Positions 6,543-64,000 of a stretch of DNA of 64,000 nt are shown here, one piece after another. The stretch covers positions 1 through 64,000 of the forward strand of contig JAEOUE010000197.1 of the NCBI GenBank assembly GCA_016839515.1. The letters run 5' to 3'. This DNA comes from Candidatus Hodarchaeum mangrovi (GTDB lineage: Archaea; Asgardarchaeota; Heimdallarchaeia; Hodarchaeales; Hodarchaeaceae). Under the pieces are notes generated by a model, which saw only the letters and a list, made by a program, of their open reading frames with translations, had not been told where the DNA came from and did not search any database. The position numbers and the translations under genes were made by a program. Every line of letters starts with the position of its first letter. The first letter of the stretch is position 1.

Positions 6543-9095
6543 ATGAGTGAATTAAAATCCCAACATGATTACTTTCTATTAAGCACAGTTTATGATGCTG
6601 AATCAAATGGAGCTGGAATTAAATTATTTGATGTTTCTAGCCAAAAAGTAATTTATTTCTTAGATCCTTATGGGCATGAACCATATTGTTATAGTTTAGA
6701 ACCATTTTCAGATCTGAAAGCAATTGAAAAAGAATTTCCCCCTAATACAATCAAGAGAATAATTACTACTAATAAAAAGGATATCTTAAATAATACTATT
6801 ATCAATCCTACTCAGATTGTAACTGTTACCCCGAGCGAAGTACCTAAAGTTCGGGATATCTTAAAAACACATGGTTGGGAAACTTGGGAGTCAAGAATAA
6901 AATATCACCGAAATTGGTTATATGATACACAATTAGTTCCAGGGAGAAAGTATTGGTGGGATGAGGTTAATAGGAAATTTATTTCCCCTCAAAGTATAAG
7001 TGAGGGATTGGAGATACCTACTCCTGTTATAGAAAATTTAGCACAATATTCAGGATTAATCCAAGTATTTCAAGATGATTTTCTTCAAGAAATTCCTGAC
7101 CTTCCTATTGTAGCTTGTGATATAGAAACTGAGTATGAGGAAGGTCAGATTCCCCAATCTAGCGATCCTAAATTCCCAGTAATTTGCATTTGTATGTCTG
7201 ATAACAAAAATAATGAAATAGCTTTGATCCTTTCACGGAAAAACATAGAAAAAGGAGAAAGTTGGGTTGAGGTTTCACAAGATCTAAGGGTTGAGTCTTT
7301 TGATGATGAAAAATTACTTTTAAAACGAGCATTTGAGATATTAAAGAAATATTCTGTAATTTGTACTTTTAATGGTGATAATTTCGATTTTCCATATCTT
7401 CATGCAAGAGCAAGACATCTAAAGATTAGTAAATCGAGCCCCATTCTTTGGAACAGAAGAGCAAAAGAATGTAATTTTCGAAATGCTATTCATCTGGATT
7501 TATATCGTTTTTTTCATAATGTAGCAATAAAAACTTATGCGTTTGGAAATAGATATCAAGAAGAGACTTTAGATGCCGTTGCTTCAGCATTGCTAGGAGT
7601 TGGAAAAATTCCTCTGAATAAAGGAATAGCTGAATTAACAGAATGGGAGTTAATAAGATATTGTTTAAGAGACGCCCGAATAACAAGAGATCTCATCTTG
7701 TATGATAACAATACTCCATTAAATCTGATATTTATACTTGCTAGAATTTCAAGAATGCCAATTGATGATCTTGTACGTACAAGTGTTTCAAATTGGGTAC
7801 AAAGCCTATTTTACCATGAACACCGTCGAAGAGGTTATTTCATCCCCAATCAAAGTGATATTCATCTATTAAAAGGTGGTGGAACTAGTACAGAAGCAAT
7901 AATCAAGGGAAAGAAGTACAAAGGTGCTAAAGTAATAGATCCTGTTCCTGGTATTCATTTTAATGTTGCAGTATTGGACTTTGCTTCACTGTATCCCTCT
8001 ATTATTGGGACTAAAAACCTCAGCTATGAAACTTTACTATGCAATCATGTTGAATGTAAAGAAAATATAGTCCCACAAACTAGCTACTGGGTTTGTAATA
8101 AGAATCGTGGGATTATGGCTGACATAATTGGATTTATAAAAGATATTCGTGTGATGTGGCTTAAACCTGCTTCCAAGGAGGAATTGGGCCGAAAAAACTT
8201 TTTCCAAATACTCGAAAGGAGTCTGAAAGTTTTGATCAATGCCTCGTATGGTGTCCTAGGAAGTGATCGATTCCCGTTGTATTGTTTACCCGTTGCTGAC
8301 TCTACAACTGCTTTTGGTCGTGATGCAATAAACAAGACTATTGAAAAAGCTGAAAGTTTAAACATTACAGTTTTATATGGAGATACAGATTCAGTCTTTC
8401 TTCTTTCACCTCCTAAAAAGAAAATTAATGAGATTATACAATGGAGTAAAAAAGAATTAGAAGTAGGACTTGAAATGGAAAAAGTATACAAATATGTAGT
8501 CCTTTCTCAACGGAAAAAGAATTATTTCGGAGTTTATGAGGATGGAAGTGTTGAGGTTAAGGGATTAATGGGTAAAAAACGAAATACTCCTCCATTTTTA
8601 CAGGATGGATTTAATGAGGTATTGCATATATTATCTCAAGTAAATAATCTTGAAGAGTTTTCAAAGGCAAAAGAAAAAGTTAAAGGGTTAATAAAAACTA
8701 TTTATGTGAAATTGGATAAGAATCAATACTCTCCAGAGGATCTCTCAATAACTATGCAGCTTACTCAACCTTTAGGATCATACAAAGTAAATTCACAACA
8801 TGTAAAAGCAGCTCGTCAGCTAGAAAATCATTATCAATCTCGATTTATGTCAAAACACAATGGAAAAAAATATAATGAGGGATTTATCAAAGCAGGACAA
8901 TTAATTAGGTTTGTTAAAACAAAGGAAGGTGATCATGTAACTCCTGTTGAGTTAATGACGAAAGATATCAAACCTGATGTGAAAGCATACAAATCAATGA
9001 TTGAATCAACATTTGATCAGCTATTGGGAGCTCTAGATATAAATCTCGAAGAACTTGCTTCTGGTCAGATAAATCTGATGGAATTTTTTAACTAA
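6543..9095 (+). CDS. polB1: Family B DNA polymerase, PolB1 (TACK 'DNA polymerase I') type
   Basis: Exonuclease motifs DIET, FNGDNFDFPYL and YCLRDA; polymerase motifs DFASLYPS, KVLINASYG and YGDTDS. PolB1-type N-terminus (LLSTVYD, GHEPYCY, WESRIKY) and C-terminal PIP box QINLMEFF. Confidence 0.93.
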   Translation: MSELKSQHDYFLLSTVYDAESNGAGIKLFDVSSQKVIYFLDPYGHEPYCYSLEPFSDLKAIEKEFPPNTIKRIITTNKKDILNNTIINPTQIVTVTPSEVPKVRDILKTHGWETWESRIKYHRNWLYDTQLVPGRKYWWDEVNRKFISPQSISEGLEIPTPVIENLAQYSGLIQVFQDDFLQEIPDLPIVACDIETEYEEGQIPQSSDPKFPVICICMSDNKNNEIALILSRKNIEKGESWVEVSQDLRVESFDDEKLLLKRAFEILKKYSVICTFNGDNFDFPYLHARARHLKISKSSPILWNRRAKECNFRNAIHLDLYRFFHNVAIKTYAFGNRYQEETLDAVASALLGVGKIPLNKGIAELTEWELIRYCLRDARITRDLILYDNNTPLNLIFILARISRMPIDDLVRTSVSNWVQSLFYHEHRRRGYFIPNQSDIHLLKGGGTSTEAIIKGKKYKGAKVIDPVPGIHFNVAVLDFASLYPSIIGTKNLSYETLLCNHVECKENIVPQTSYWVCNKNRGIMADIIGFIKDIRVMWLKPASKEELGRKNFFQILERSLKVLINASYGVLGSDRFPLYCLPVADSTTAFGRDAINKTIEKAESLNITVLYGDTDSVFLLSPPKKKINEIIQWSKKELEVGLEMEKVYKYVVLSQRKKNYFGVYEDGSVEVKGLMGKKRNTPPFLQDGFNEVLHILSQVNNLEEFSKAKEKVKGLIKTIYVKLDKNQYSPEDLSITMQLTQPLGSYKVNSQHVKAARQLENHYQSRFMSKHNGKKYNEGFIKAGQLIRFVKTKEGDHVTPVELMTKDIKPDVKAYKSMIESTFDQLLGALDINLEELASGQINLMEFFN

Positions 9096-50780: not shown

Positions 50781-52805
50781 ATGAATAAAATGTCAAATTT
50801 AGATGTATATGCGATTTCAAAGGAACTCCAAGCTCTTGTTGGATATAGAGTAGATAATATTTATCGTGATTCATCGGATAGTTTTTATTTGTTTAAATTT
50901 AAAGGAACTGGGAGTTTTAAAAATCCAATATTATTGATAGAACCAGGAGTCCGTTTTCATTTAACAGAATACAAACATGAAGTACCTCAGCGTCCAACGG
51001 AGAAGATTATGGCAGTAAGAAAACATTTAAAGGGTTCAGAATTAGTTAAAATTTGTCAAGTTGAATTTGATAGAATTATAGAGATGACATTGGTAGGAAA
51101 GCAGAAGTATCGAGTTTATGTTGAGCTTTTTGGGACAAAACCAAATTTTGTTATTGTGGGAGAGGAGAATAAGGTAATTTCAGCTTTGTGGTATAGAAAA
51201 ATGCGTCATCGCGATCTTTTACCAGGTAAGGAGTTTGAATTACCTCCAAGTAGTGGAAAGTCAATATTTCAACTTAGTCTTGAGGAATTAAAATCAAACC
51301 TAGCTTCCAGTGAATATCAAAACGAGGAAATTGTTAGAGTATTAGTACGTAAATTTGGGGGAGGAGGGGGCCTTATGGAAGAAATTTTATACAGAGCTGG
51401 GATTTTAAAATCAATTCACTGCTCTGAAATAACAGAAAAAGAAATTATGACTTTTTTATCTATTTTCAAAGAAATAGAAATAGAATTAATCAACTTAAAT
51501 CCTTCTGTAATTCTTGATAAAGACAATAAACCAGTTTTATATCAACCAATAACTCTAAGATCAATAGATGGTTTTTTAAGAAAGTTTGATACTTTTTCTG
51601 CTGCTATGGACTATTATTACTCTTCTACTCTTCCTCAGATTTCCACAAGTATAATATCAATTGATCGAAAGCGGAAAAAGATACTAGCAATAAAGGAGAA
51701 ACAGGAAAAAGCAATTAAAGAGTTTACAGCGAAGGAAATGAGATACAAATTGCTTGGAGACCGAATTTACGAGAATTTTCATTTAATTGATGATTTATTA
51801 AGTACAATAATGCAGGCACGTAAAAAGAATATATCCTGGGAGGAGATTATGAAAAAATTTGAAAGTGCAGGAACTCACAGCTTTCCTTCTTTGAAAATTC
51901 TCAAAGAAATAGTTCCCGAAAAAGGAAAAATTATTCTAATATTGGATTCAGAAGAAGTTGAAATCGATTTTCGAAAATCTGCTTCAAATATAGCTAATGA
52001 TTTCTATGAAAATGCCAAAAAAGTATCAAGGAAAATTGTACCAGCCCAAGAAGCTCTTGAAAAAACAATTGAGAGACTAAATAACCTATCAGAGGAACTT
52101 ACTATTCAAAAAGAAGCTGCATCGTTGAATTTAAAGAGACGAAAAAGAAAATGGTATGAAAAATTTCATTGGACTTATTCAAAAAATAATTTTCTAATTA
52201 TTGGAGGAAAAGATATTTCAGGAAATGAAGAGTTAGCTAAACGGCGATTAAATGAGACTGACCTATTTTTTCATGCTGAGCTTCAAGGTGCTCCTTATAC
52301 TATATTGAAACGAGAATCCAATGATTTGGATCCTTCAGAAGAAGACATTAAAACTGCTGCTCAATTAGCTGCTTGTTTTTCAAGTGGTTGGAAAGTTGGA
52401 TATGGTGCAGTAGATGTCTATTATGTAACTGGTTCAAATGTGAGTTTTTCAGCACCAAGTGGTGAATATATACCAAAGGGGGGAATAATGATTAAAGGAA
52501 CTAGGAATTATATCAGGGGAGTTGAATTAATTCTAGCAATCGGTATAGAATTTGATGAATATTCCGCTAGAATAATTTATGGAAATGAAGAAAAAATAAA
52601 ACTAGTAAGCCAAAATTACATTTTGATCAAACCTGGTTCCGAACCAAAAGGAAAATTAGCAAAAAAAATCCAAAAAGTCTTTATTGAGAATGCTAACTCA
52701 TCTGAAGAGCAAGCAAAAATACGTGCGATAGATTTGAACGAATTTGTTCACGCCATACCACATAATTCAGTGATCTATAATGTTTTCTTTTCTAAATCAG
52801 TCTAA
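50781..52805 (+). CDS. rqcH: Ribosome quality-control factor Rqc2/NEMF (NFACT, RqcH) homolog
   Basis: MSNLDV, RKHL, FDRI, KWYEKFHW, IGGKD, HAELQGAP and APSGEYIPKG motifs. Confidence 0.92.
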   Translation: MNKMSNLDVYAISKELQALVGYRVDNIYRDSSDSFYLFKFKGTGSFKNPILLIEPGVRFHLTEYKHEVPQRPTEKIMAVRKHLKGSELVKICQVEFDRIIEMTLVGKQKYRVYVELFGTKPNFVIVGEENKVISALWYRKMRHRDLLPGKEFELPPSSGKSIFQLSLEELKSNLASSEYQNEEIVRVLVRKFGGGGGLMEEILYRAGILKSIHCSEITEKEIMTFLSIFKEIEIELINLNPSVILDKDNKPVLYQPITLRSIDGFLRKFDTFSAAMDYYYSSTLPQISTSIISIDRKRKKILAIKEKQEKAIKEFTAKEMRYKLLGDRIYENFHLIDDLLSTIMQARKKNISWEEIMKKFESAGTHSFPSLKILKEIVPEKGKIILILDSEEVEIDFRKSASNIANDFYENAKKVSRKIVPAQEALEKTIERLNNLSEELTIQKEAASLNLKRRKRKWYEKFHWTYSKNNFLIIGGKDISGNEELAKRRLNETDLFFHAELQGAPYTILKRESNDLDPSEEDIKTAAQLAACFSSGWKVGYGAVDVYYVTGSNVSFSAPSGEYIPKGGIMIKGTRNYIRGVELILAIGIEFDEYSARIIYGNEEKIKLVSQNYILIKPGSEPKGKLAKKIQKVFIENANSSEEQAKIRAIDLNEFVHAIPHNSVIYNVFFSKSV

Positions 52806-53429
52806 ATCTTCATTAGAGGTGTCATCCTCAAGATTTGCTTTTATACAATCCGAACATAATGTATAACCATTAGTTACATTTAGAAATTCGGAATAATTAC
52901 CACAATCATCACAAAAGCCTTTAAGTTTTGGGTATTCTAATTCATTTGTTGTATTTTCTATTAAAAGTTGTTCTAGTCTAATTCTCATAAGACCAGGTGC
53001 AAATTTTAAAATATCATTAGTTGACACTATTCCAAGTGGTTTGGATAAATCATTGTTTTCAACAACAAGAATTCGTTCAATATTTCGTTTAGCCATATAT
53101 AACATACAATTCTCCAATGTTTCATCAGATGAAACATAAGCAATTGGATGGGTCATCACATCTTCAACTAAAATTATGCCAGGATCAAGAGCACAGCCAA
53201 CAACTCGATTTATAATATCACCTTTGGTAATAATTCCTAGGATCTGTTCATTTTTTATGACTACTGATCCTACATTATGTTCTTTCATTAGTTTAGCAGC
53301 TTCTGCAACGGGTTGATTTCTTGGCATTGAAATAATCCTAGATTCTTTTTTTAGTAAATGCTTAATTATTACCTCATTTTCTCTTTGAATCACAGTATAA
53401 AGACACTCCTTGATTTCATGATAACTCAT
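52797..53429 (-). CDS. CBS-pair protein with C-terminal Zn-binding motif
   Basis: AAKLMKEHNVGSVV, GIITKGDI and VEDVMT; GFCDDCG...LCSDC. Confidence 0.88.
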   Translation of the reverse strand: MSYHEIKECLYTVIQRENEVIIKHLLKKESRIISMPRNQPVAEAAKLMKEHNVGSVVIKNEQILGIITKGDIINRVVGCALDPGIILVEDVMTHPIAYVSSDETLENCMLYMAKRNIERILVVENNDLSKPLGIVSTNDILKFAPGLMRIRLEQLLIENTTNELEYPKLKGFCDDCGNYSEFLNVTNGYTLCSDCIKANLEDDTSNEDLD

Positions 53430-53825: not shown

Positions 53826-56800
53826 TTAGAAAAGAGTTGTAGGACGTAATCCAATCTCAAATACCTGACGCTTATTTATTTCTAGTAATTTTATCCAAGA
53901 GTCTAAATATTGCGAAATACTTGAAGCATAATTTTCTTCTAGTTGCGTTATAATTTGTGTGTATCGCAATACCCAGCCTTCAGAAAGAGTTAACCCGATC
54001 TTTTCTTGTCCACAGGATGAACATTTACCTGATAGAGGGATACGTCGGAAGTTTCGGTTACATCTTAGACATCTAAAAGGTTGAGAGAAGAATTTTTCTA
54101 AAGAAGAGTTATATTTTTCTAAAAAATCGTTTTCTAATATTTTTTCAACAAACTCACTCTCTTGAGTACCCTGAATTTTTTTAAGGATTGAAAGACTTGA
54201 TTGAATCTTTGAAATAAGTTTACTCTGTTTAAGCGGATTACTAATATTAAATCCTGAGATGTTGTCAATCTTATGAATTTTTGGATAAGAGTAATTTAAA
54301 TTAGAAATTTTGTAGACCAGAAGATCTTTTTTGGTAGGATTACTTTTTAATTCTCTGAAAAATAGTAGATTCATAGGAATGGATTCACTCATTGCATAGA
54401 ATGACAAATCTTCCCAAGAATCTGGCATATTCAAAACCATAGGGACATCCATTGTTCCCCCTCTAGTAGTGGGAATAAATTCTTCAGAAAAATTAATTAA
54501 AACATCAAGTAGAAGAGTAAACGAGTCTATGTCTCCATTACAGTTACGTCCCTTTAATTTATGCCAAACTGGATGTGCATAAAGAACATCAGTTGTGGTA
54601 GAACCAATAATTCGTCCGATCACTCCAACCTTAGAAAAAGGGGAAATTCCGACAATCAAAGAACCCATTAGATCTTGGAAGGATTTTAATCTGAAATAGG
54701 CTGGCAAATCGTAAAATTCAGTTAATTCATCATCAATAAATTTAGTTAGTTTTAAAAGAAATTTTTCAGATGACTTACTAATAATAACATCATATGGAAA
54801 GAGTTCTATTAATTGATTTTCATTTTCTAGCTGCTTTCCTTCAATATCATGGTCATAACCAAGACGGATAAGATCTTCAATCGATGTTCCTACTTCCAGA
54901 GGTTTGAAACATAATAAGGGGGCATTTGTAGTATCAAACCGACTAGTTCCATCTTTATAGACATATATATCATGTCTTGCTCTCAAAACACCTTTGTTGA
55001 GATTCTCTGGAATTTTATTTTTAGTATTAAGATAAGAAACCGCTTTAAATTTTTCTAAATTTGAAATATCACTTTTATTTACCTTTAGCAGTTCCTCAAA
55101 GGCTACAGAATGTGGTTTAGAAGGAACACCATAATTTCCACATACAGGACAATTTTTTGTTTCAAAAGTATGGTTATTTCTGCACAAAAGTTTTTGAGTT
55201 GTTTCTTGATTACAGTCTGGGCAGTAAACATAATAAACTGTTTTTTGACAGGACGAACAGTATCGGTTCGAAAGGTTAAGAATTACTGCCTTTTCTTTTA
55301 TTACTTTTAATAAATTTCTTTGAGACCCTCCTAAGGATCCGATGGGAAAAAGAACGTGAGATGGAGGATTTATATGACGAGGTTCAGCTTTTTCTACTCG
55401 AACTATCTGAGTACCAAGTCTACGTTTTGATTTTGATCTTATTGGTACTCCGATTAATTTAGATACAATTTCCTCAGTCTCATCCTCAATGGAGAGATTA
55501 TTTATTATTTGATCTAAATCAAGATTTTCATCTTTTAAACGAGTTAAAATGTGCTGAAAATTATCAAATTCAATCCTTTCATTACTAACAGAAAAAGGAA
55601 CACCTAAAAAACTTAGAATCCTTTTCATTTCATCATTATTGGGAATTTTTGGTTCTTCATTCTTAATAATATGGTCTAATAAAAGAATTAAATCACTAAT
55701 AGCTATATTATTCCAATTAAAAGAAAATTTAGGGTGCAAAGGCACTTTTGTTAATTTAGATATCAAATAAACTTTTTCAGGATTCAATTTAAAGACTGAT
55801 GGATTATCAAGACAACTTTTTAAAATATTGAAGTCAACAGATAAAGCTCGTGCTAAATTTTGAATCGAACCAAATTTCCTTATTGAGGCATTAATCACCT
55901 CCATTGCCCACCATTCCTCGGTCCAGGAAGATATATCAAAAGCTTCCTGATCAGGAATATCATCAGGACAAAGTAATAATTCTCCTAATTCCCAGATTTG
56001 TATGATTCTATTTTCATATTCTTTAAATGTTTCAATATTGTCAATCCGTACTAAAGAGCCATCTTCAATTGTTACTAAAGGACCTGTTAAACTAGAAACA
56101 GGAAGTGTTATTAAATTTCGTTCTATTAAGTCAATTTTTATTGACGTTCCTGGCGAAATGATTTTTAAAAGCATCATTGTCGCTGGATTTACACCAACTG
56201 AACCAAATCCAGTATTACGTGTGCGTCCATACCTTAATTGAAACCCCCCTGGACCAGATGATTTTGATAACAATGGTTGAGTACCTCGAATTTCTCGATC
56301 ACCAAAAACTAGTTTATTCTTTTTTACAAAATGAAAACTTCTATCTAACCAGTTCCATTCTGGAATTTCAGCTAAAATTTTATATCGAGTAATCAGGTTT
56401 ATATTATCCATAAAACGTTCTAATGCTACACACATTCCCATTCTTAATTGGTTTGATAGAGGTGGAAGATTTCTATATTTAACAACCTCAATTCTTTCAT
56501 AGGATTCACCTGAGATTTCAATACCAATATTTTGGAGTATTAATTTCGCTAAATCCTTTTTCAAATCAGGAATTCGATCACTTAGCTCATAATAAAGCTC
56601 TAATTCCTCAATATATCTTCCTATCATTTCAGGTGTAGCGTTAAATCGATTTAGATGCAAGATTCTGCGTAGGTAATCCGCAATTAGAACAACTAATCCT
56701 ATTACTTCCCCAGGGACATAACGAATAGTATTGGAAAAAAAAATTGTCAAATGTGAAGTCTTTTCTGAAATAGCTATTTTTGGAATAGCCTCTTCGGGAA

Positions 56801-57146
56801 CAGAAATCAATCCTTGACTTAAGATAACACATGCGCTTTGGAGTGCAATTAGAATTAGCTCCTCTCGAGGCAATTTTAAATAATAACCGTTTACTATCTG
56901 TTTGGCTATTTCTGCTGCAAGTAAAAGTGAGTTCTCATGGAAAACGATGTTTGATGGCAAATTTTCTTCTAAACCAGCAATATTTATGATTGAGGAAATT
57001 CTTAACTTTACAGAATATGTTATTATCGATTCTACGTTACATCTTGGGTCATATTTCCGATTTCGTGCTTGTTGTGCTAAAGAAAATTGATTGTTCAATG
57101 ATTTTTTTATCTGTGTAACATAATTGGTGAATTCTGGAAAAATCAT
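53826..57146 (-). CDS. polC: DNA polymerase D large subunit DP2 homolog, probably catalytically inactive
   Basis: GGFQLRYGRTRNTG, YKDGTSRFD, RGGTMDVP and FRCLRCNRNFRRIPLSGKC are present, but the catalytic motif reads RNCNGDID. Confidence 0.9.
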   Translation of the reverse strand: MIFPEFTNYVTQIKKSLNNQFSLAQQARNRKYDPRCNVESIITYSVKLRISSIINIAGLEENLPSNIVFHENSLLLAAEIAKQIVNGYYLKLPREELILIALQSACVILSQGLISVPEEAIPKIAISEKTSHLTIFFSNTIRYVPGEVIGLVVLIADYLRRILHLNRFNATPEMIGRYIEELELYYELSDRIPDLKKDLAKLILQNIGIEISGESYERIEVVKYRNLPPLSNQLRMGMCVALERFMDNINLITRYKILAEIPEWNWLDRSFHFVKKNKLVFGDREIRGTQPLLSKSSGPGGFQLRYGRTRNTGFGSVGVNPATMMLLKIISPGTSIKIDLIERNLITLPVSSLTGPLVTIEDGSLVRIDNIETFKEYENRIIQIWELGELLLCPDDIPDQEAFDISSWTEEWWAMEVINASIRKFGSIQNLARALSVDFNILKSCLDNPSVFKLNPEKVYLISKLTKVPLHPKFSFNWNNIAISDLILLLDHIIKNEEPKIPNNDEMKRILSFLGVPFSVSNERIEFDNFQHILTRLKDENLDLDQIINNLSIEDETEEIVSKLIGVPIRSKSKRRLGTQIVRVEKAEPRHINPPSHVLFPIGSLGGSQRNLLKVIKEKAVILNLSNRYCSSCQKTVYYVYCPDCNQETTQKLLCRNNHTFETKNCPVCGNYGVPSKPHSVAFEELLKVNKSDISNLEKFKAVSYLNTKNKIPENLNKGVLRARHDIYVYKDGTSRFDTTNAPLLCFKPLEVGTSIEDLIRLGYDHDIEGKQLENENQLIELFPYDVIISKSSEKFLLKLTKFIDDELTEFYDLPAYFRLKSFQDLMGSLIVGISPFSKVGVIGRIIGSTTTDVLYAHPVWHKLKGRNCNGDIDSFTLLLDVLINFSEEFIPTTRGGTMDVPMVLNMPDSWEDLSFYAMSESIPMNLLFFRELKSNPTKKDLLVYKISNLNYSYPKIHKIDNISGFNISNPLKQSKLISKIQSSLSILKKIQGTQESEFVEKILENDFLEKYNSSLEKFFSQPFRCLRCNRNFRRIPLSGKCSSCGQEKIGLTLSEGWVLRYTQIITQLEENYASSISQYLDSWIKLLEINKRQVFEIGLRPTTLF

Positions 57147-57850
57147 GAAAGAATCCTAATCCCATTAGGTAAAGTTACGTTAAGTATACCAATATTATTT
57201 ATTGAAGTAAGTTTATCGAAATAGAACACTCCAGTTTGGTTTAAATATGGATTGGGTATCAATGGTATAGTTCCATTTAAAATAAAGATACTATAGGGAT
57301 TTGTTGGCTGAAAAGATTCTCTTCGTTTACTAAAAATAAAGATCTGATTATCAAATACTTCAACACGAGCATGGAATACTAAATTAAATATCTCTTCTAT
57401 AGTTAGGGAAGTCGTCAAGCTTGTTAATTTTAATTTAAAGTTTGCTGAAACTTCACTAGAATAAATATTTCCATTGGTCACATTTGTATATGGTGGTTGT
57501 TTTGCATTCATTTGAAAAGTTTCTTCAATAAATGAGAATTCCGCTAGTATACCTCTGGTTATTGCCAAATATTCTAAATTTTTCAAAAAATCTTTAATAG
57601 ACAGTTTAGCATTTTCTTGAGACATTCCTGAGTTATTTTGCGTGTATTTGGATAAAATATATTCTAAAAAGTTTTGAATTTCCCTTTTAGAGTCGAAATA
57701 TGGTTCTGAGAGAGATTCTCTATTAAATTCAAGTTGATTTACTTGTATGTTCATTAAAGCTGCAGCCATTGAAACAATATAAATCGCTATAAGCATTGTT
57801 GCTAAAATAAACATTTGCCCCTGTCTTGATTTATTAAATAACTTCTGCAT
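57143..57850 (-). CDS. Pilin-like protein with class III signal peptide
   Basis: KSRQG|QMFILATMLIAIYIV. Confidence 0.75.
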   Translation of the reverse strand: MQKLFNKSRQGQMFILATMLIAIYIVSMAAALMNIQVNQLEFNRESLSEPYFDSKREIQNFLEYILSKYTQNNSGMSQENAKLSIKDFLKNLEYLAITRGILAEFSFIEETFQMNAKQPPYTNVTNGNIYSSEVSANFKLKLTSLTTSLTIEEIFNLVFHARVEVFDNQIFIFSKRRESFQPTNPYSIFILNGTIPLIPNPYLNQTGVFYFDKLTSINNIGILNVTLPNGIRILS

Positions 57851-58372
57851 CTATATTTTCTCCCATAAATAAAGTTTAACTAAATAGCCATTCTGAAATT
57901 GACCATATTCTGCAGATGTGTATGATCCAAGATGATAATTAATAATTACTCCCTCTCCTCCAGTTTGAAGTGCTGCAATATCTGCAGCTGAGCCTAAAAT
58001 CGTGTTATATGAATCAGAAGGCACTCCATTGACTAAATCATGAGCAATAAGTATAAAACCATAATTATCACTCAAAATAGAAGTAATATAGGCATCTAGA
58101 AGACTAAGAAAATAGGTTGCTTCATCTGAATAAATAGGATTGAATTTAAGATAAATAGAAGGTCTAAGATAGCCTGCTTCGTCAGCTGTGCTTAAAATGT
58201 CATAGCCAGTTCGATCTAGAAATTTATATGATTGAGGAGGATTTAAGCTTTGGTCCGCAGCATTAATAAGCAATAGAGCGAGAACTAACATTAAAGAAAC
58301 AGCTACCAATGTTTCAGCAATTTGTAACTGACCACGCTGTCTCCTTTTTTTTAAATATTTCATTTTACTCAC
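57851..58372 (-). CDS. Pilin-like protein with class III signal peptide
   Basis: KKRRQRG|QLQIAETLVAVSLML. Confidence 0.8.
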   Translation of the reverse strand: MSKMKYLKKRRQRGQLQIAETLVAVSLMLVLALLLINAADQSLNPPQSYKFLDRTGYDILSTADEAGYLRPSIYLKFNPIYSDEATYFLSLLDAYITSILSDNYGFILIAHDLVNGVPSDSYNTILGSAADIAALQTGGEGVIINYHLGSYTSAEYGQFQNGYLVKLYLWEKI

Positions 58373-59537
58373 TCCAAAGAGTTATTTGACATCGCATTAA
58401 TAAACCACGGACAATCACAGGATAAGTTTTACTCAATAAAGCTTTGATTCTAATATTATCACTTATATGACCCAAAGTATTATAATACTGTCCTTGTTCC
58501 TCTGTTTTATCCAAAATAGCTGGATAAGTTCCAATACCAACTCTATAATAATCCGTATATTGTGAAATACTAAGAAGTATGACAAGGCCAGTTTCTGGTA
58601 GTAATATTGTTTCATTTCCATCCCAAGATATAGACCCTAAATCTAGAAAATGTGATGAATATGAATGTAATGTATCTTTGTAGATTATCGAAATGAAATG
58701 ATTAACAGGTGTATCTGTTGTAGGTAAAGTATCGCTTACAAGCAAAGCTGAAGAATTAATGCCACCTCCCCAAATAGTCGTACTTGAAGAAGATCCGATA
58801 AAAGCTTGAGGAAAAACAGAGTCTATGCTTCCCCAATTTACACCCCAAAGAACACCTGTCTCGGCTACTACCAAGATGACATGTTGTCCATCTGGATCAT
58901 TAAAATGCGGAATCTCATACGTATAAGAACTCCCTCCAGTAGAATTCGTGAGTAGATCCTCTCCGTATAGCAATTGTGCATCTTTTAAGTTAACAACTAT
59001 TACTTTAGAATTAGCTTTAGGGATTGGAGTATTGTAAGGATTTGTAACAACAAATTCTACTCTATTATGGGTTTGATTTACACTGATTAGAGTAAGAGAT
59101 ATCTTTAGGCTTTGTTGAAGGGAGATTTGAAATTCTCTCTTTCCAGATAATTTTATAACATCTTTCAAAGTTTCATAATCATAATTATTCATTCCAGAGA
59201 TAGTAGAAATTCCCGTTCCACTAATAAGACGAGCAATTTTGGCAGCATCCAGAGCAAAATATCCATAATAATGACTAGTGGCTAAACCGAAATTATTAGG
59301 TAAATTTTTTAGATATCCCCAATCATCTGTTCCTGATTCCTGTAATATCATACGGCTAAAATTGTCGAGATCATCATATGAGATTGTCCCTACATCAGTA
59401 CGATTAATATTAGATTGAATGTTAATTATAATAAGGAGTAATTGTGAAAGCATTAACAAGAAAAGGAAAAGACTGATGACAAAGTCCACAGCTCTCATTT
59501 GTCCTTTTCGTTTTTTGTTTAAAAGTTGAAATATCAT
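58365..59537 (-). CDS. Large minor pilin-like protein with class III signal peptide
   Basis: KKRKG|QMRAVDFVISLFLFL; later SGTDDWG...FGLA. Confidence 0.8.
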   Translation of the reverse strand: MIFQLLNKKRKGQMRAVDFVISLFLFLLMLSQLLLIIINIQSNINRTDVGTISYDDLDNFSRMILQESGTDDWGYLKNLPNNFGLATSHYYGYFALDAAKIARLISGTGISTISGMNNYDYETLKDVIKLSGKREFQISLQQSLKISLTLISVNQTHNRVEFVVTNPYNTPIPKANSKVIVVNLKDAQLLYGEDLLTNSTGGSSYTYEIPHFNDPDGQHVILVVAETGVLWGVNWGSIDSVFPQAFIGSSSSTTIWGGGINSSALLVSDTLPTTDTPVNHFISIIYKDTLHSYSSHFLDLGSISWDGNETILLPETGLVILLSISQYTDYYRVGIGTYPAILDKTEEQGQYYNTLGHISDNIRIKALLSKTYPVIVRGLLMRCQITLWSE

Positions 59538-59579
59538 TTATGCTTCCCATCATATTGTGATAATTTGTTAATTAACATC

Positions 59580-60026
59580 CTAAGAAATATCATCGGTTGA
59601 TCCAACATTAGAAACTTCTAGCTGAATTACAATTTCCTCCAATTTATCCTTTAATTCAAGTAAGGTGGTTTCTAATTCAGTTAGCTGTAATCCTTTCTCT
59701 AAAAGAGTTGTTGCTTGAGCAATTAACTCATCTGCTTTTTCAGCTTTCTCTGATCTTATATTTGAAGTGATCTCTGATAGTGTATTCACTTTTAAAGTTA
59801 ATTCAGAGATATTTTTTTCCATAATTCCTAATCTTCCTTCAATTGGTGCAAAATCGACTTCTACAGGGCCAACTGCAACATTAGGAGCTGAAGAAGAGAT
59901 TGGTTTTGGTAATGAACCCCCTGAACCCATGCCTTGGACAAGTAGAAATTCCATATTAGTAAGTTTGTCTTCCAAACTAGATATTTTTTCTAATATTTCT
60001 GTTAATACCTTTTCATCTTTACCCAT
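59580..60026 (-). CDS. Cytoplasmic coiled-coil accessory protein of the pilus operon
   Basis: Heptad repeats; embedded in the operon. Confidence 0.65.
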   Translation of the reverse strand: MGKDEKVLTEILEKISSLEDKLTNMEFLLVQGMGSGGSLPKPISSSAPNVAVGPVEVDFAPIEGRLGIMEKNISELTLKVNTLSEITSNIRSEKAEKADELIAQATTLLEKGLQLTELETTLLELKDKLEEIVIQLEVSNVGSTDDIS

Positions 60027-60042
60027 TATATCACCATTTATC

Positions 60043-60999
60043 CTAGAAAAGCAGAACAGTTATTTTAAAGAAAGCATAGGAGATAATCAATAGAATACAT
60101 GAATGTCTCAAGCCTATTTTAGCATCTCCTTCACCCATTTTTCCTGAAATTAATCCAGCAAATATTGCTTCAATAATCATAAGGTGGAAAAAGAGTAATT
60201 GAAGTCCTGCAACATTCGATGGGAGTTTTGCAGTTGCTACTTGTCCAGCTGAAACAGCATCAACTATTTGAACTGCAAGGGTTTGGAAGAAGGAATAAAG
60301 TAAGATAATCATTACAATCGCAAATACAATGAAAGAGGCATATATTATCCAAGTATAAGGTTTCATTGCTGAAAGTCTTTCCCGTTTTAAACCTAAAATC
60401 TCAGAAACATGGTTATGTGCAGATTCAAATACATCTTCAATGGCTCCACCTGATCGTTCAGCCTCTAAAATCAACAGCGAGGTTCGCTTCATTAAAGGAG
60501 TGTCTGCAGTTTCAGTTAAACTTCGAAGAGCTTTGCTAAAAGGTATTCCCCAACTTATTTTAGCGGCCATTTTTTTTAATTCTGGTGTAAGAGCTCCATA
60601 TTGATGCTTTGAGGATTCCATTATTGCTCTAGGTAATGGTAAACCTGTTTTTTGAGCATCAGAAATCTCTCTAAGAAGAGAAGGAATGTGGTCATCAATA
60701 TTATCCCGCCATTTTTGATTCGAATGATAAGCTAGAGCAGGTATTAAAAGGAGAGCTAGAGCTAGTAATACTGTAATATCTAAAACATCAAAAAACTTGA
60801 AGATAGGATCTAAAGAGACCTCACGTATAGTGAATAAGTAAGGATCATTTTCAATAGGAGGATAAACAGGTTCTGTTCTTTCAACAATATGCTGAATAAC
60901 TGGACTATAGAAAAATAATGAAATCACTAATGTAACAAGAAACAAAAATATTGAGAGTATCCAAATCCTTTGTTCACCTTTTGTAGTAAGTTTTCCCAT
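60043..60999 (-). CDS. Type IV pilus/T2SS F-family (TadC/PilC-like) membrane platform protein
   Basis: IPSLLREIS...TGLPL, ERSGG and GLISGKMGEG motifs. Confidence 0.9.
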   Translation of the reverse strand: MGKLTTKGEQRIWILSIFLFLVTLVISLFFYSPVIQHIVERTEPVYPPIENDPYLFTIREVSLDPIFKFFDVLDITVLLALALLLIPALAYHSNQKWRDNIDDHIPSLLREISDAQKTGLPLPRAIMESSKHQYGALTPELKKMAAKISWGIPFSKALRSLTETADTPLMKRTSLLILEAERSGGAIEDVFESAHNHVSEILGLKRERLSAMKPYTWIIYASFIVFAIVMIILLYSFFQTLAVQIVDAVSAGQVATAKLPSNVAGLQLLFFHLMIIEAIFAGLISGKMGEGDAKIGLRHSCILLIISYAFFKITVLLF

Positions 61000-61015
61000 T
61001 CTTTCTTGCCTCCAT

Positions 61016-61939
61016 TTAAATTTCTCGTGATATTGTTGAAATTAGTAAAAGCATCACTGTTAATAGGATTGGCATCAAAAAATAGGTAAGTAGAACCATA
61101 ATTATTCCACCTACAGTTGCATCCTTAGTGATAACAGCTAAAATAGCAATAATAACAACAAAGAAAAGAGGTGAAACTACTCCGATGATCATAAAAATTT
61201 CTGATAAAACCCCTAATTGTTCAATAAACTCTTTTGTTTCTTCTTCTTTAAGTTTCATTAGCGCTTTACTCTCAGCTGTTAAGAAAAAAGTTAAATCACC
61301 ACCGCTAGTCACTGTTGCAGACATACCATCAAGAAATTTGGAGAATCTTTCTGAAGGAGACCGTTCGCTCGCAGTTCTAAGTGCTTTTAAAATATCATAA
61401 CCAAAAATTTCAATATCACGTGTTATACGTTTACTCTCCTTGGAAATTTCAGGAGCGACTGATTCTTCACCTGCAAGTGAGTAGAATAATCTATCTGGGG
61501 GAACTCCAGAACTTGACATAGCAGACAGATAAGAAGCGGTTGATGGTAAACCAGCTTCAATAAGAATTTTACGATCAGCAGCCTTCATTTGAGGCCAATA
61601 TATGAATGGAATATAGGTTATTATGGCAAAAAATATTCCTAGTATTATGCCTATAATAATACTCAATAATAATTGTCCATTGGCGTTGATTTGAGGAGTT
61701 AATGATTGAACAAGTATTAATACTAATCCTGTACTAAAAAATAAGACTAATAATCCAACAATAATTGAACTGAGTATTGCACTTCCAAGATATGCACGAA
61801 CAGAAATGTCTATTCCTGCTTTTTTTAAACTTCGACCTAATCGCTTAAACTTTCCCCCTTCAATCCATGGTTCTAGATACCTCCCAAAACGGAGATAACC
61901 AACTCGCCTTATAAACTTACTCAAAGTAAAACGCTCCAC
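61016..61939 (-). CDS. Type IV pilus/T2SS F-family (TadB/TadC-like) membrane platform protein
   Basis: LPSTASYLSAMSSSG, FGYDILKAL...SPSERF and SGGDL motifs. Confidence 0.9.
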   Translation of the reverse strand: MERFTLSKFIRRVGYLRFGRYLEPWIEGGKFKRLGRSLKKAGIDISVRAYLGSAILSSIIVGLLVLFFSTGLVLILVQSLTPQINANGQLLLSIIIGIILGIFFAIITYIPFIYWPQMKAADRKILIEAGLPSTASYLSAMSSSGVPPDRLFYSLAGEESVAPEISKESKRITRDIEIFGYDILKALRTASERSPSERFSKFLDGMSATVTSGGDLTFFLTAESKALMKLKEEETKEFIEQLGVLSEIFMIIGVVSPLFFVVIIAILAVITKDATVGGIIMVLLTYFLMPILLTVMLLLISTISREI

Positions 61940-61947
61940 AACGATTT

Positions 61948-63456
61948 TTAGACAGCTTTTAGTTCTCTTTTTGCTCGATCTACAGTTTCTAAAGGATTTT
62001 GATAATAATTGTTAATAACTTCAGCAACTTGTGTGTAATGGGCCAATTTTTTCTTTACTTGCCATCTTAAAATGGTTTTTCGCCTCTCAATTTCTTCATA
62101 AACTTGGGAATCTGTCAATCCTTGGCCTTCTTGTATTCCTTCAAGAATATAAGACCTTCCATAATTGATAAAGGCGTCTTCGCGTGCATTCCAACCAAAA
62201 ACTTTATTTGTTATTAACTCTGTGGTTACCGGATCAATTCCCACGATTTCTGTCGCCTCAATAACCCTTCTTACTTGCTTATCCCCACGTCGAACCTTTC
62301 GAAGGACAATAAGCAGATTTAGAGTTTGAATTAATGTTCGAGGAATATTCATGGGTTCATTTTCAAGTCGACGTATAGTTCCTGTAACACTATCTCCGTG
62401 TATTGTACCCATTCCTGTATGTCCTGTTGCCATGGCTTGGAAAAGGTTATAAGCTTCCGAACCACGAACTTCACCAACAAATAAATAATCAGGCCTTTGT
62501 CGCAATGCAGCACGAAGTAGATCATACATTGATACTTCCCCACGTCTAGATCCATCTATTTCTCGTCCACCATATCCTTCTCGAGCCACGGCTGGAATCC
62601 AATTTTCATGTGGTAAATGAAGTTCTGCAGTATCTTCAATAGATACTATTTTCATTCCTGGTCGAATAAACATTGCTAAACTATTAAGAAGTGAAGTTTT
62701 ACCTGCAGCTGTACCTCCAGCGATAACTACTGAATTTCTATTCTCTAAAGCATACCAAAGAAACGCTGCAAGATCTTCATCAATTGTATTGAATGTTATC
62801 ATATCAGTTATGGTTAGTGGATCAGAACGAAATTTTCTGATTGTAAAAGTACTACCCCTTTGAGTAACTTCTCTACCATATGTTAACTGCAGACGACTCC
62901 CATCAGCAAGAGCTGCATCTAATAAAGGTCGTGCAACACTAATATGACGTCCTGAACGCTGAGCAAGCTTAATAATAAAGGCATCCAGATCATCTTCGTT
63001 ATCAAATTTTATATTAGTTTGAATACTTTCAAATTTTCGGTGCCAGATATAAACAGGAATTCCAACCCCATCACACGAAATGTCTTCAACATTATGGTCC
63101 TTTAGCATTGCATCTATAGGTCCAAATCCCACAAAATCTCGTGTTATATGATAATTGATTTTGTCAAATGTTTTCTCATCTAATTTTAAACCGTAATTTT
63201 TAGCAATACCGATGACTTTCTGTCTTAAGTAATCTCGAGCAACCTCAGGGTTTTTAAGAACATTAAAGTCGACATCTAATTCTTCTTCTAATGTACTCTT
63301 GATCATATCCAAAATTTCTTTCTCTTTAGCACTAAGAGGAACTTCAACGACGGTATATTTAGTTTGTTTTGATTCTGGGTCAGTTGCAACTAGTGCGTAA
63401 CTAAATGGGGGGATTAAAGGATATGTTTCACGAATTAAACTACTCGATTCGGACAT
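61948..63456 (-). CDS. Type IV pilus assembly ATPase (VirB11/TadA/PilB-FlaI-like)
   Basis: EDISCDG, FTIRKF, GGTAAGKTS, SIEDTAEL, LRQRPDYLFVGEVRG and TGH motifs. Confidence 0.95.
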   Translation of the reverse strand: MSESSSLIRETYPLIPPFSYALVATDPESKQTKYTVVEVPLSAKEKEILDMIKSTLEEELDVDFNVLKNPEVARDYLRQKVIGIAKNYGLKLDEKTFDKINYHITRDFVGFGPIDAMLKDHNVEDISCDGVGIPVYIWHRKFESIQTNIKFDNEDDLDAFIIKLAQRSGRHISVARPLLDAALADGSRLQLTYGREVTQRGSTFTIRKFRSDPLTITDMITFNTIDEDLAAFLWYALENRNSVVIAGGTAAGKTSLLNSLAMFIRPGMKIVSIEDTAELHLPHENWIPAVAREGYGGREIDGSRRGEVSMYDLLRAALRQRPDYLFVGEVRGSEAYNLFQAMATGHTGMGTIHGDSVTGTIRRLENEPMNIPRTLIQTLNLLIVLRKVRRGDKQVRRVIEATEIVGIDPVTTELITNKVFGWNAREDAFINYGRSYILEGIQEGQGLTDSQVYEEIERRKTILRWQVKKKLAHYTQVAEVINNYYQNPLETVDRAKRELKAV

Positions 63457-63600: not shown

Positions 63601-64000
63601 TTAAGTTATCTGGATATTAAGATCCAGCCCAATCTTTCCTATAGATAAAATAAGTATCTCATTGACGCTTTGAAAAGCTGTATTTGCCACAATAAGGTTG
63701 AATTTACTGTTGATCATGAACGATTGTATACGATTTACTTCATATTTCGTGGTAAAGCCATGAAGTTGGATTTCATTATTAGATACATTAGTTATTTCAA
63801 TAGAATAACGAAGTCCTTGACCAAGTAGCGATGGGAGATTTATATATTGGTTTATTGTAATATTTCCAGAGTCACAAAGTTGCAATGATTGCTGGATTTG
63901 ACTTTGCAGAAATTCGAGAATTTCTCGCATTTCTAGATTAGCTAAATTATCCCGAAATTCTTCACTTAAAGTAAGAAACATTGAATTAGTCAAAATCACT
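63601..64000 (-). CDS. Probable pilin-like/secreted protein (5' end outside the window)
   Basis: Open frame to the window edge; INLPSLLG...YSIEI resembles archaeal pilin-like accessory proteins; upstream of the pilus ATPase. Confidence 0.5.
   Translation of the reverse strand, partial: VILTNSMFLTLSEEFRDNLANLEMREILEFLQSQIQQSLQLCDSGNITINQYINLPSLLGQGLRYSIEITNVSNNEIQLHGFTTKYEVNRIQSFMINSKFNLIVANTAFQSVNEILILSIGKIGLDLNIQIT

Follow-up and report, generated by a model that had tools for sequence, protein, structure and literature searches.

The 64,000-nucleotide stretch that we analysed (positions 1 to 64,000 of contig JAEOUE010000197.1 of Candidatus Hodarchaeum mangrovi, assembly GCA_016839515.1; hereafter the window) carries a full-length homologue of DP2, the large subunit of PolD, the DNA polymerase of family D, in which the first catalytic aspartate is replaced by an asparagine. 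We consider this protein to be, probably, a pseudo-polymerase: a DP2 without catalysis, kept under selection as a non-catalytic subunit while family B polymerases (PolBs) carry out DNA synthesis. This proposal is carried by the state of the active-site motifs, the fixation of that state across the whole order, the purifying selection acting on the gene, the single DP2 copy found in the genome and the set of PolBs encoded beside it.

In most archaea, PolD is held to be the essential replicase. In eukaryotes, PolBs replaced the catalytic part of PolD, while DP1-like B-subunits and a DP2-like zinc-binding C-terminal domain were kept. Hodarchaeales have been proposed as the order that is closest to eukaryotes. 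Here, a whole order keeps a full-length, apparently dead DP2 under selection beside a PolB that resembles DNA polymerase epsilon, which makes it a natural system for examining the role of the non-catalytic body of a replicase and the order in which the handover from PolD to PolB took place.

Results

A full-length DP2 with a damaged active site

The window gene (Table 1) belongs to DP2 by descent, since homology runs through its N-terminal, central and catalytic parts. Each of the three Pfam domains of DP2 is matched (DP2_N PF03833, 2.4e-38; DP2_central PF24844, 3.2e-73; DP2_cat PF24846, 2.3e-79) and the closest solved relative is Pyrococcus abyssi DP2 (6hms_B, E 4.4e-160 with phmmer). The profile TIGR00354 (polC) scores 710.1 bits, above its cut-off of 702.15; NF003103 scores 789.8, below its cut-off of 1269. 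The match to the Pfam catalytic domain is restricted to profile positions 3-215 of 299 and reaches 267 bits, with uninterrupted canonical Asgard DP2s scoring 430-490 bits on the same domain.

On the minus strand, the codons around the catalytic loop read cat aaa tta aag gga cgt aac tgt AAT gga gac ata gac, which translate to H K L K G R N C N G D I D. In the ungapped phmmer row against 6hms_B, N870 stands on P. abyssi D956 and D872 on D958, two residues described as invariant and critical for catalysis with reference to an alanine scan by Shen and colleagues (PMC4996933). We compared the protein with the three active-site motifs of PolD, acidic (a), basic (b) and selectivity (s), as they are defined for Thermococcus sp. 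9degN PolD in PMC7708050; all three are altered. According to that source, the acidic motif is N-x-D-G-D with two catalytic aspartates, the a-motif of the 9degN enzyme being K959 R960 R961 N962 C963 D964 G965 D966. There, D964A and D966A each abolish synthesis, and R960A and R961A hold products to about 10 nt. The window protein reads N-C-N-G-D, with asparagine at the D964 position and glycine at the R960 position. In our alignment of 17 clade members, the D964 position holds asparagine in 16 and serine in one. Among 21 canonical Asgard DP2s, all have aspartate at both catalytic positions and 16 read exactly HAAKRRNCDGDED. Judged from the mutagenesis of these homologues, the polymerase activity of the window DP2 would thus be lost.

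The b-motif of the 9degN enzyme consists of K392, R395 and K398, and the K398A variant extends fewer than 15% of primers by 1 nt (PMC7708050). The window protein has K337, then L340 at the R395 position and R343 at the K398 position; the latter is arginine in 12 and lysine in one of the 17 members of our clade alignment. In the s-motif, the steric-gate histidine of PHT, called 'invariable across all PolDs' in PMC7708050, is phenylalanine (PFS), as it is in 13 of the 17 clade members, the others having threonine (3) or isoleucine (1). Finally, many of the 21 canonical Asgard DP2s end in a PCNA-interacting peptide (PIP) box of the type Q-x-x-L-x-[ED]-F-F. Such a PIP-like box is absent from all 17 clade members, which end earlier, in a sequence resembling ...NKRLLFDKGPRPTTL[IF].

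The ligands of the zinc modules persist. The Zn-II module of the clade is C-x3-H...C-x2-C with an invariant histidine, where canonical DP2s have CxxC, and the four Zn-III cysteines (C1026, C1029, C1042, C1045) are likewise invariant in the 17 members.

The initial annotation of the window had read AAT as asparagine in place of the first catalytic aspartate and had quoted the canonical consensus; both hold, as does its description of an intact 1106-aa frame with retained zinc modules, apart from the one Zn-II cysteine that has become histidine. Its account of the acidic motif is right for the aspartate loss and not for the last D of DGDED, which lies outside the N-x-D-G-D motif as given in PMC7708050 and varies among canonical DP2s. 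It also saw the damage to the acidic motif and missed the loss of the b-motif, the s-motif and the PIP box.

Divergence extends well beyond these motifs. There are 228 columns in which the 21 canonical DP2s hardly vary; of these, 118 are kept by the 17 clade members, 67 are lost and 43 are kept in part. We considered a concentration of losses in the catalytic domain and rejected it: lost canonical invariants amount to 15/47 in the N-terminal, 20/72 in the central, 12/71 in the catalytic and 14/31 in the C-terminal domain. Losses being spread over all domains, the whole protein has diverged and not the active site alone.

The asparagine codon recurs in independent data. Twenty public sequencing runs from seven studies contain at least 75% of the sampled words of the DP2 gene. 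The check was made on assembled contigs: those of three runs from three studies cover the bin of the codon (depths 6.3, 8.8 and 4.4) and show no difference there. Differences occur at seven other positions only, none of them in the motif. Together with the agreement of the relatives described below, these contigs exclude a sequencing error, which the initial annotation had already thought unlikely.

The altered motif is fixed across the order

We call the clade Hodarchaeales (LC3/B3 Heimdall subgroup), a name that we infer, and use the order for two families together, f1, which includes the window genome, and f2. A DP2 match is present in 39 of 41 related genomes, and a scan with the clade alignment gave 20 DP2 loci. 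Within f1, 20 of 21 relatives have a DP2 match, the exception being a 1.4-Mb, 71%-complete assembly, and none of these 20 retains the first catalytic aspartate (asparagine in 19, serine in 1). The second one is replaced in six of the 20 (N, A, A, A, V and V), two of these six being 96% identical to each other. Both f2 DP2s are more decayed than those of f1. The copy of genome G023 reads R-T-A-N-G-D-I-D and has a degenerate C-terminus; that of G022 has a loop without any aspartate (L-G-A-V-H) and keeps a 1194-aa frame and the C-terminal CxxC..CxxC. Outside the order, four of nine sister-family loci read HAAKRRN[CA]DGDED contiguously and five were read as far as RRNC, just after which an intein splits them.

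We also scanned a representative library of 1.84 billion proteins. In the best 150 of 886 matches, the motif could be read by a regular expression in 144, and the position of the first aspartate holds D in 138 of them, N in 5 and G in 1. The five representatives with asparagine all belong to the Hodarchaeales clade, at 40% identity to the query or more.

In a FastTree phylogeny of 43 sequences, f1 and f2 together are monophyletic (support 1.0, stem 0.58), and the median root-to-tip length of the clade is about twice that of canonical DP2s (3.13 vs 1.53). From these sequences, the simplest history would be a single inactivation, at the order's base or earlier, with decay continuing afterwards in sublineages. 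The sister to the clade in this tree is P0087, a protein of 1152 aa that is 30% identical to the query and reads R-N-C-G-G-E-V-D ('GGEVD'), without either catalytic aspartate; it is the library representative with glycine at the first position and may stand for a second lineage with a dead DP2. In a further family of the phylum sample, f19, the DP2 catalytic domain was matched in none of four genomes, which fits the Baldrarchaeia without DP2 reported in PMC12680538.

The gene is under strong purifying selection

The ratio of nonsynonymous to synonymous substitution rates (dN/dS, by Nei-Gojobori) is 0.089-0.138 in 11 clade pairs with dS 0.36-1.29. The gene is thus under strong purifying selection and is not decaying. 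Six pairs were also examined by domain. In the five with dS of at least 0.36, the ex-catalytic domain has a dN/dS of 0.065-0.117, and the catalytic loop with 25 residues on either side has one of 0.036-0.109; the sixth, a near-identical pair (dS 0.06), gives 0.221 in the ex-catalytic domain. The 21 canonical DP2s contain no pair with dS 0.2-1.3.

The DP1 partner is present and predicted to bind

One gene for DP1, the small subunit of PolD, was found in the genome, on another contig (Table 1); it matches Thermococcus kodakarensis DP1 (6knb_A) at 1.4e-45. Four of its nuclease motifs (I, II, IV and V) are intact, and GEH stands in place of GNH in motif III. In this fold, the GNH asparagine serves as a conserved metal ligand. 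All 19 f1 DP1s keep the same four motifs, with motif III reading GEH in 18 and GER in one; the sister-family DP1s have GNH in 11 of 11. The f1 genome with the GER DP1 is also the one whose DP2 reads SGNID. In the f2 genomes G022 (85% complete) and G023 (80% complete), DP1 was not found with queries based on the DP1 protein, PF04042 and the A2 profile. The DP1 of LC3 is described as very divergent in PMC7544198.

A complex of DP1 (residues 120-517) and DP2 (residues 985-1106) was modelled with the clade alignment of each protein. The pair scores 0.76, against 0.00 for the best control, a mark that is reached by 58 of 80 solved complexes and by 2 of 110 mismatched pairs. Between runs, at least 68% of contacts agree, and the partner has a predicted local distance difference test score (pLDDT) of at least 63. 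The model supports the binding of the DP2 C-terminal domain to DP1, as the initial annotation had predicted for the C-terminal finger; PolD complexes being already solved, it shows likeness to them and not binding by this particular copy.

A single DP2 and four PolBs

The genome is a 4.0-Mb metagenome-assembled genome (MAG) of 348 contigs, and at 91.3% completeness and 6.1% contamination no second DP2 was found in it. It encodes four PolBs (Table 1). The one in the window is of the PolB1 type (1s5j_A at 2.2e-163; NF004417 at 825 bits vs a cut-off of 780) and was correctly described in the initial annotation as intact and bearing a PIP box; it ends in QINLMEFFN. A PolB3-like enzyme has the same YGDTDS motif. 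The contig of the PolB2-like gene has a GC content of 0.345, inside the 0.30-0.37 range of the genome; the encoded protein appears to be a second inactive polymerase homologue in this genome.

The fourth PolB has the catalytic subunits of Pol epsilon as its top matches in the Protein Data Bank (1.4e-59, vs about 1e-14 for archaeal PolBs). It is present in 20 of 21 f1 and both f2 genomes and in none of the 17 genomes of the sister families f3-f5 (E at most 1e-20). It is the B10 group of PMC7544198, and a Pol-epsilon subunit known only from Hodarchaeales is reported in PMC10307638. In several relatives, this PolB lies in frames of 1900-2020 aa with the match split in two, which suggests inteins.

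Genome searches for a second DGD-bearing DP2 and for DP1, and a dN/dS analysis, had been proposed with the initial annotation; their outcomes (no further DP2 found, one DP1 gene, purifying selection) all agree with the non-catalytic role that it suggested for the window DP2.

Genomic neighbourhood

The DP2 gene lies directly downstream of a complete type-IV-pilus-like cluster on the same strand. Four pilin-like open reading frames (ORFs) in this cluster have N-terminal K-G-Q-hydrophobic signals and no Pfam match, and the stop of the last one overlaps the start of DP2 (ATGA). The two pilin-like genes nearest to DP2 are its direct neighbours in 18 of 19 f1 loci, and the whole set of eight cluster genes is collinear in four of four further genomes, the pilus ATPase being 90-92% identical where DP2 is 46-55% identical. 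The cluster was not found upstream of the canonical DP2 in four sister-family genomes, nor in f2. On the downstream flank, the CBS gene adjoins DP2 in 17 of 19 f1 loci.

Table 1. Features of the window and of the rest of the genome that are discussed in the text.
Feature	Location	Strand	Description
DP2 (PolD large subunit) homologue	53826..57146	-	1106-aa ORF, zero internal stops
Degenerate basic (b) motif, residues 337-343	56118..56138	-	K I D L I E R; canonical [KR] T E R P G K
Zn-I (C630, C633, C642, C645) and Zn-II (C655, H659, C666, C669) modules	55140..55259	-	Eight ligands invariant in 17 clade members
Degenerate selectivity (s) motif, residues 833-838	54633..54650	-	G I S P F S; canonical G L A P H T
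Degenerate acidic (a) motif, residues 865-872	54531..54554	-	K G R N C N G D; canonical K R R N C D G D
Codon AAT, Asn870	54537..54539	-	Position of P. abyssi Asp956
C-terminal domain, residues 985-1106, with Zn-III (C1026, C1029, C1042, C1045)	53829..54194	-	Predicted DP1-binding part; without PIP-like box
PolB1-type family B polymerase	6543..9095	+	850 aa; YGDTDS; C-terminal QINLMEFFN
NFACT (RqcH-like) protein	50781-52805	+	Downstream flank of DP2
CBS-pair protein	52797-53429	-	C-terminal Cys-rich tail; downstream flank of DP2
Type-IV-pilus-like cluster	57143-63456, with ORF 63601-63999	-	Directly upstream of DP2
PilB/T2SSE ATPase	61948-63456	-	
Two T2SSF platform genes	61016-61939, 60043-60999	-	
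DP1-family gene	Contig C295, L002:694-2280	+	528 aa from first TTG; adjoins Cdc6/Orc1
PolB3-like enzyme	Contig C41		YGDTDS
PolB2-like gene	Contig C47:6468-10325	-	1285 aa; large intein; degenerate motif C
Pol-epsilon-like PolB	Contig C34:28244-32566	-	1440 aa; motif C ELDTDG; C-terminal CxxC..CxxC

Discussion

We propose that DP2 lost its polymerase catalysis in the order's ancestor, in step with the gain of the Pol-epsilon-like PolB. The dead DP2 would most likely still pair with DP1 through its Zn-III C-terminal domain and would act as a structural or DNA-binding partner in the replisome, synthesis being ensured by PolB1, the PolB3-like enzyme and the order-specific Pol-epsilon-like PolB. 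Its PCNA tether would be gone, because the C-terminal PIP-like box is missing throughout the clade. A scaffold role may be suggested by analogy. Thermococcus PolD has been described as a hub that contacts GINS via DP1 and connects the primase to the helicase, and a Heimdallarchaeal primase binds the DP2 C-terminal domain in yeast two-hybrid assays (PMC12680538). Contacts with primase, GINS or helicase are thus plausible as the functions for which the DP2 has been retained.

Several observations weigh against a purely structural, inactive DP2. Around the loop, H858, H862, K865 and R867 are still invariant in the 17 clade members, and the replacement of K398 by arginine is conservative. Both D872 and D874 are kept in the window DP2 and in 14 of 20 f1 relatives; with the reading moved on by two residues, N870-G-D872-I-D874 resembles the canonical N-x-D-x-D in its spacing. 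The loop is as strongly constrained as the rest of the gene, so that this surface still matters for something. DP1 retains four of its five nuclease motifs, and the complex may therefore act enzymatically, as a nuclease, instead of having a structural function only. In addition, the incompleteness of the assembly leaves room for a second DP2, and the AlphaFold 2 prediction of DP2 from the 17-row clade alignment (mean pLDDT 50.3, predicted TM-score 0.32) is too poor for use.

The most serious alternative, which we nevertheless hold to be unlikely, is that DP1-DP2 survives solely as a nuclease, such as a 3'-5' exonuclease that works in trans, in repair or in primer processing, to which DP2 contributes DNA binding only. 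This overlaps with the explanation that we prefer and differs from it in making DP1 catalysis the selected function. It agrees with the nuclease motifs kept in all 19 f1 DP1s, in which the carboxylate of GEH could still bind a metal, with the constrained DNA-binding surface of DP2, and with PMC7544198, where the B3 DP1 is considered possibly active. However, the clade-wide loss of the GNH asparagine, a metal ligand, may equally mark the inactivation of DP1. DP2 also persists in the two f2 genomes in which our three queries, at 85% and 80% completeness, found no DP1.

A more specific version of the pseudo-polymerase, more doubtful still, is that the dead DP2-DP1 forms the scaffold and B-subunit module of a composite replicase in which the Pol-epsilon-like PolB provides catalysis, that is a living intermediate of the PolD-to-PolB switch. 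If true, this replicase would function as a split-gene analogue of eukaryotic Pol epsilon, with its active N-half, inactive C-half and B-subunit. The C-terminal domain of the Hodarchaeal Pol-epsilon-like PolB does not interact with DP1 in the yeast two-hybrid assays of PMC12680538; a PolB bound to DP2 rather than to DP1 would fit this result.

We give little credence to a DP2 that would still be a DNA or RNA polymerase, either through a re-registered N870-x-D872-x-D874 site or through a two-metal site that tolerates asparagine. The spacing noted above, with isoleucine or valine after the first aspartate (N-G-D-[IV]-D), and the constraint on the loop speak for such an enzyme, and native PolD does use asparagine at the first triad position, the N962D mutant being active (PMC7708050). 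Yet the shift in register puts isoleucine or valine in place of the glycine between the two aspartates, and the flanks show no indel. Moreover, six of the 20 f1 relatives and the f2 genome G022 are unable to form the shifted site and nonetheless keep full-length frames, D964A alone abolishes the activity of the 9degN enzyme (PMC7708050), and the b- and s-motifs, R960 and the PIP box are lost as well.

The conserved linkage with the pilus genes in f1, down to the ATGA overlap, could also mean that the inactive DP2 was recruited to DNA handling, for instance in uptake or exchange, by the adjacent apparatus. We regard this as highly improbable: by itself, gene order counts as weak evidence, a functional or physical link is not known, and f2 has an inactive DP2 without the linkage, so that inactivation either preceded it or was independent of it. 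As for a sequencing or assembly error or a decaying pseudogene, the source is indeed a single MAG of 348 contigs with 6% contamination, but the contigs of three studies, the 20 concordant f1 relatives, the intact frame and dN/dS values of about 0.1 leave it practically no chance.

Comparison with known systems

Part of this picture is already in print. On the basis of two MAGs, LC3 and B3, PMC7544198 (NAR 2020) implied an inactive DP2 in this group, together with a divergent DP1 and the B10 PolB, then known only from these two, and stated that 'some Heimdallarchaea (e.g. AB125) do encode active DP2 and DP1'. The link between the inactive DP2 of this Heimdall subgroup and eukaryogenesis was also drawn there, so that the bearing on the PolD-to-PolB switch pointed out in the initial annotation stands without being new. 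In our literature search, it was the only source to touch on the inactive DP2 of this group, and its Supplementary Figures S15 and S16 may already show the motif states; the sections of the 2025 replisome survey (PMC12680538) at hand do not mention it. The core fact being published, the value of the present work lies in breadth and detail: the extent of the inactive state, the further losses in b-motif, s-motif and PIP box, the stepwise disappearance of the second aspartate, the dN/dS values, the GEH state of DP1 and the synteny with the pilus cluster.

Compared with canonical DP2s (P. abyssi 6hms and 6t8h, T. kodakarensis 6knb), the window protein has the same domain order (N-terminal, central, two-barrel catalytic and Zn-III C-terminal domains), aligns end to end (E about 1e-160), retains the zinc ligands and has a DP1 partner gene. 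It differs by its altered a-, b- and s-motifs, by the absence of a PIP-like box and by the loss of 67 of 228 near-invariant columns in its clade.

A second counterpart is the Heimdall_B3/LC3-like group of PMC7544198, which belongs to the same clade (the B3_Heim DP2 is 46% identical), has no active DP2 and combines this with a PolEpsilonN-like PolB bearing a C-terminal zinc motif. The window genome belongs to this group by lineage, by having no active DP2 and by its B10-like PolB, which occurs in the genome itself and in 22 of 23 relatives of the order. Where PMC7544198 had two MAGs, a further species and 22 relatives are described here.

Finally, a more distant likeness, by analogy only, is found in the C-half of eukaryotic Pol epsilon and its inactive B-subunits. 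In both cases an inactivated polymerase module stands beside an active PolB, and a zinc-binding C-terminal domain binds, or in our case is predicted to bind, a subunit of the DP1 family. The non-catalytic C-half of Pol epsilon has a structural role. Its fold is that of an inactivated family B enzyme, joined to the active half, whereas the module of Hodarchaeales is a two-barrel family D protein encoded by a separate gene.

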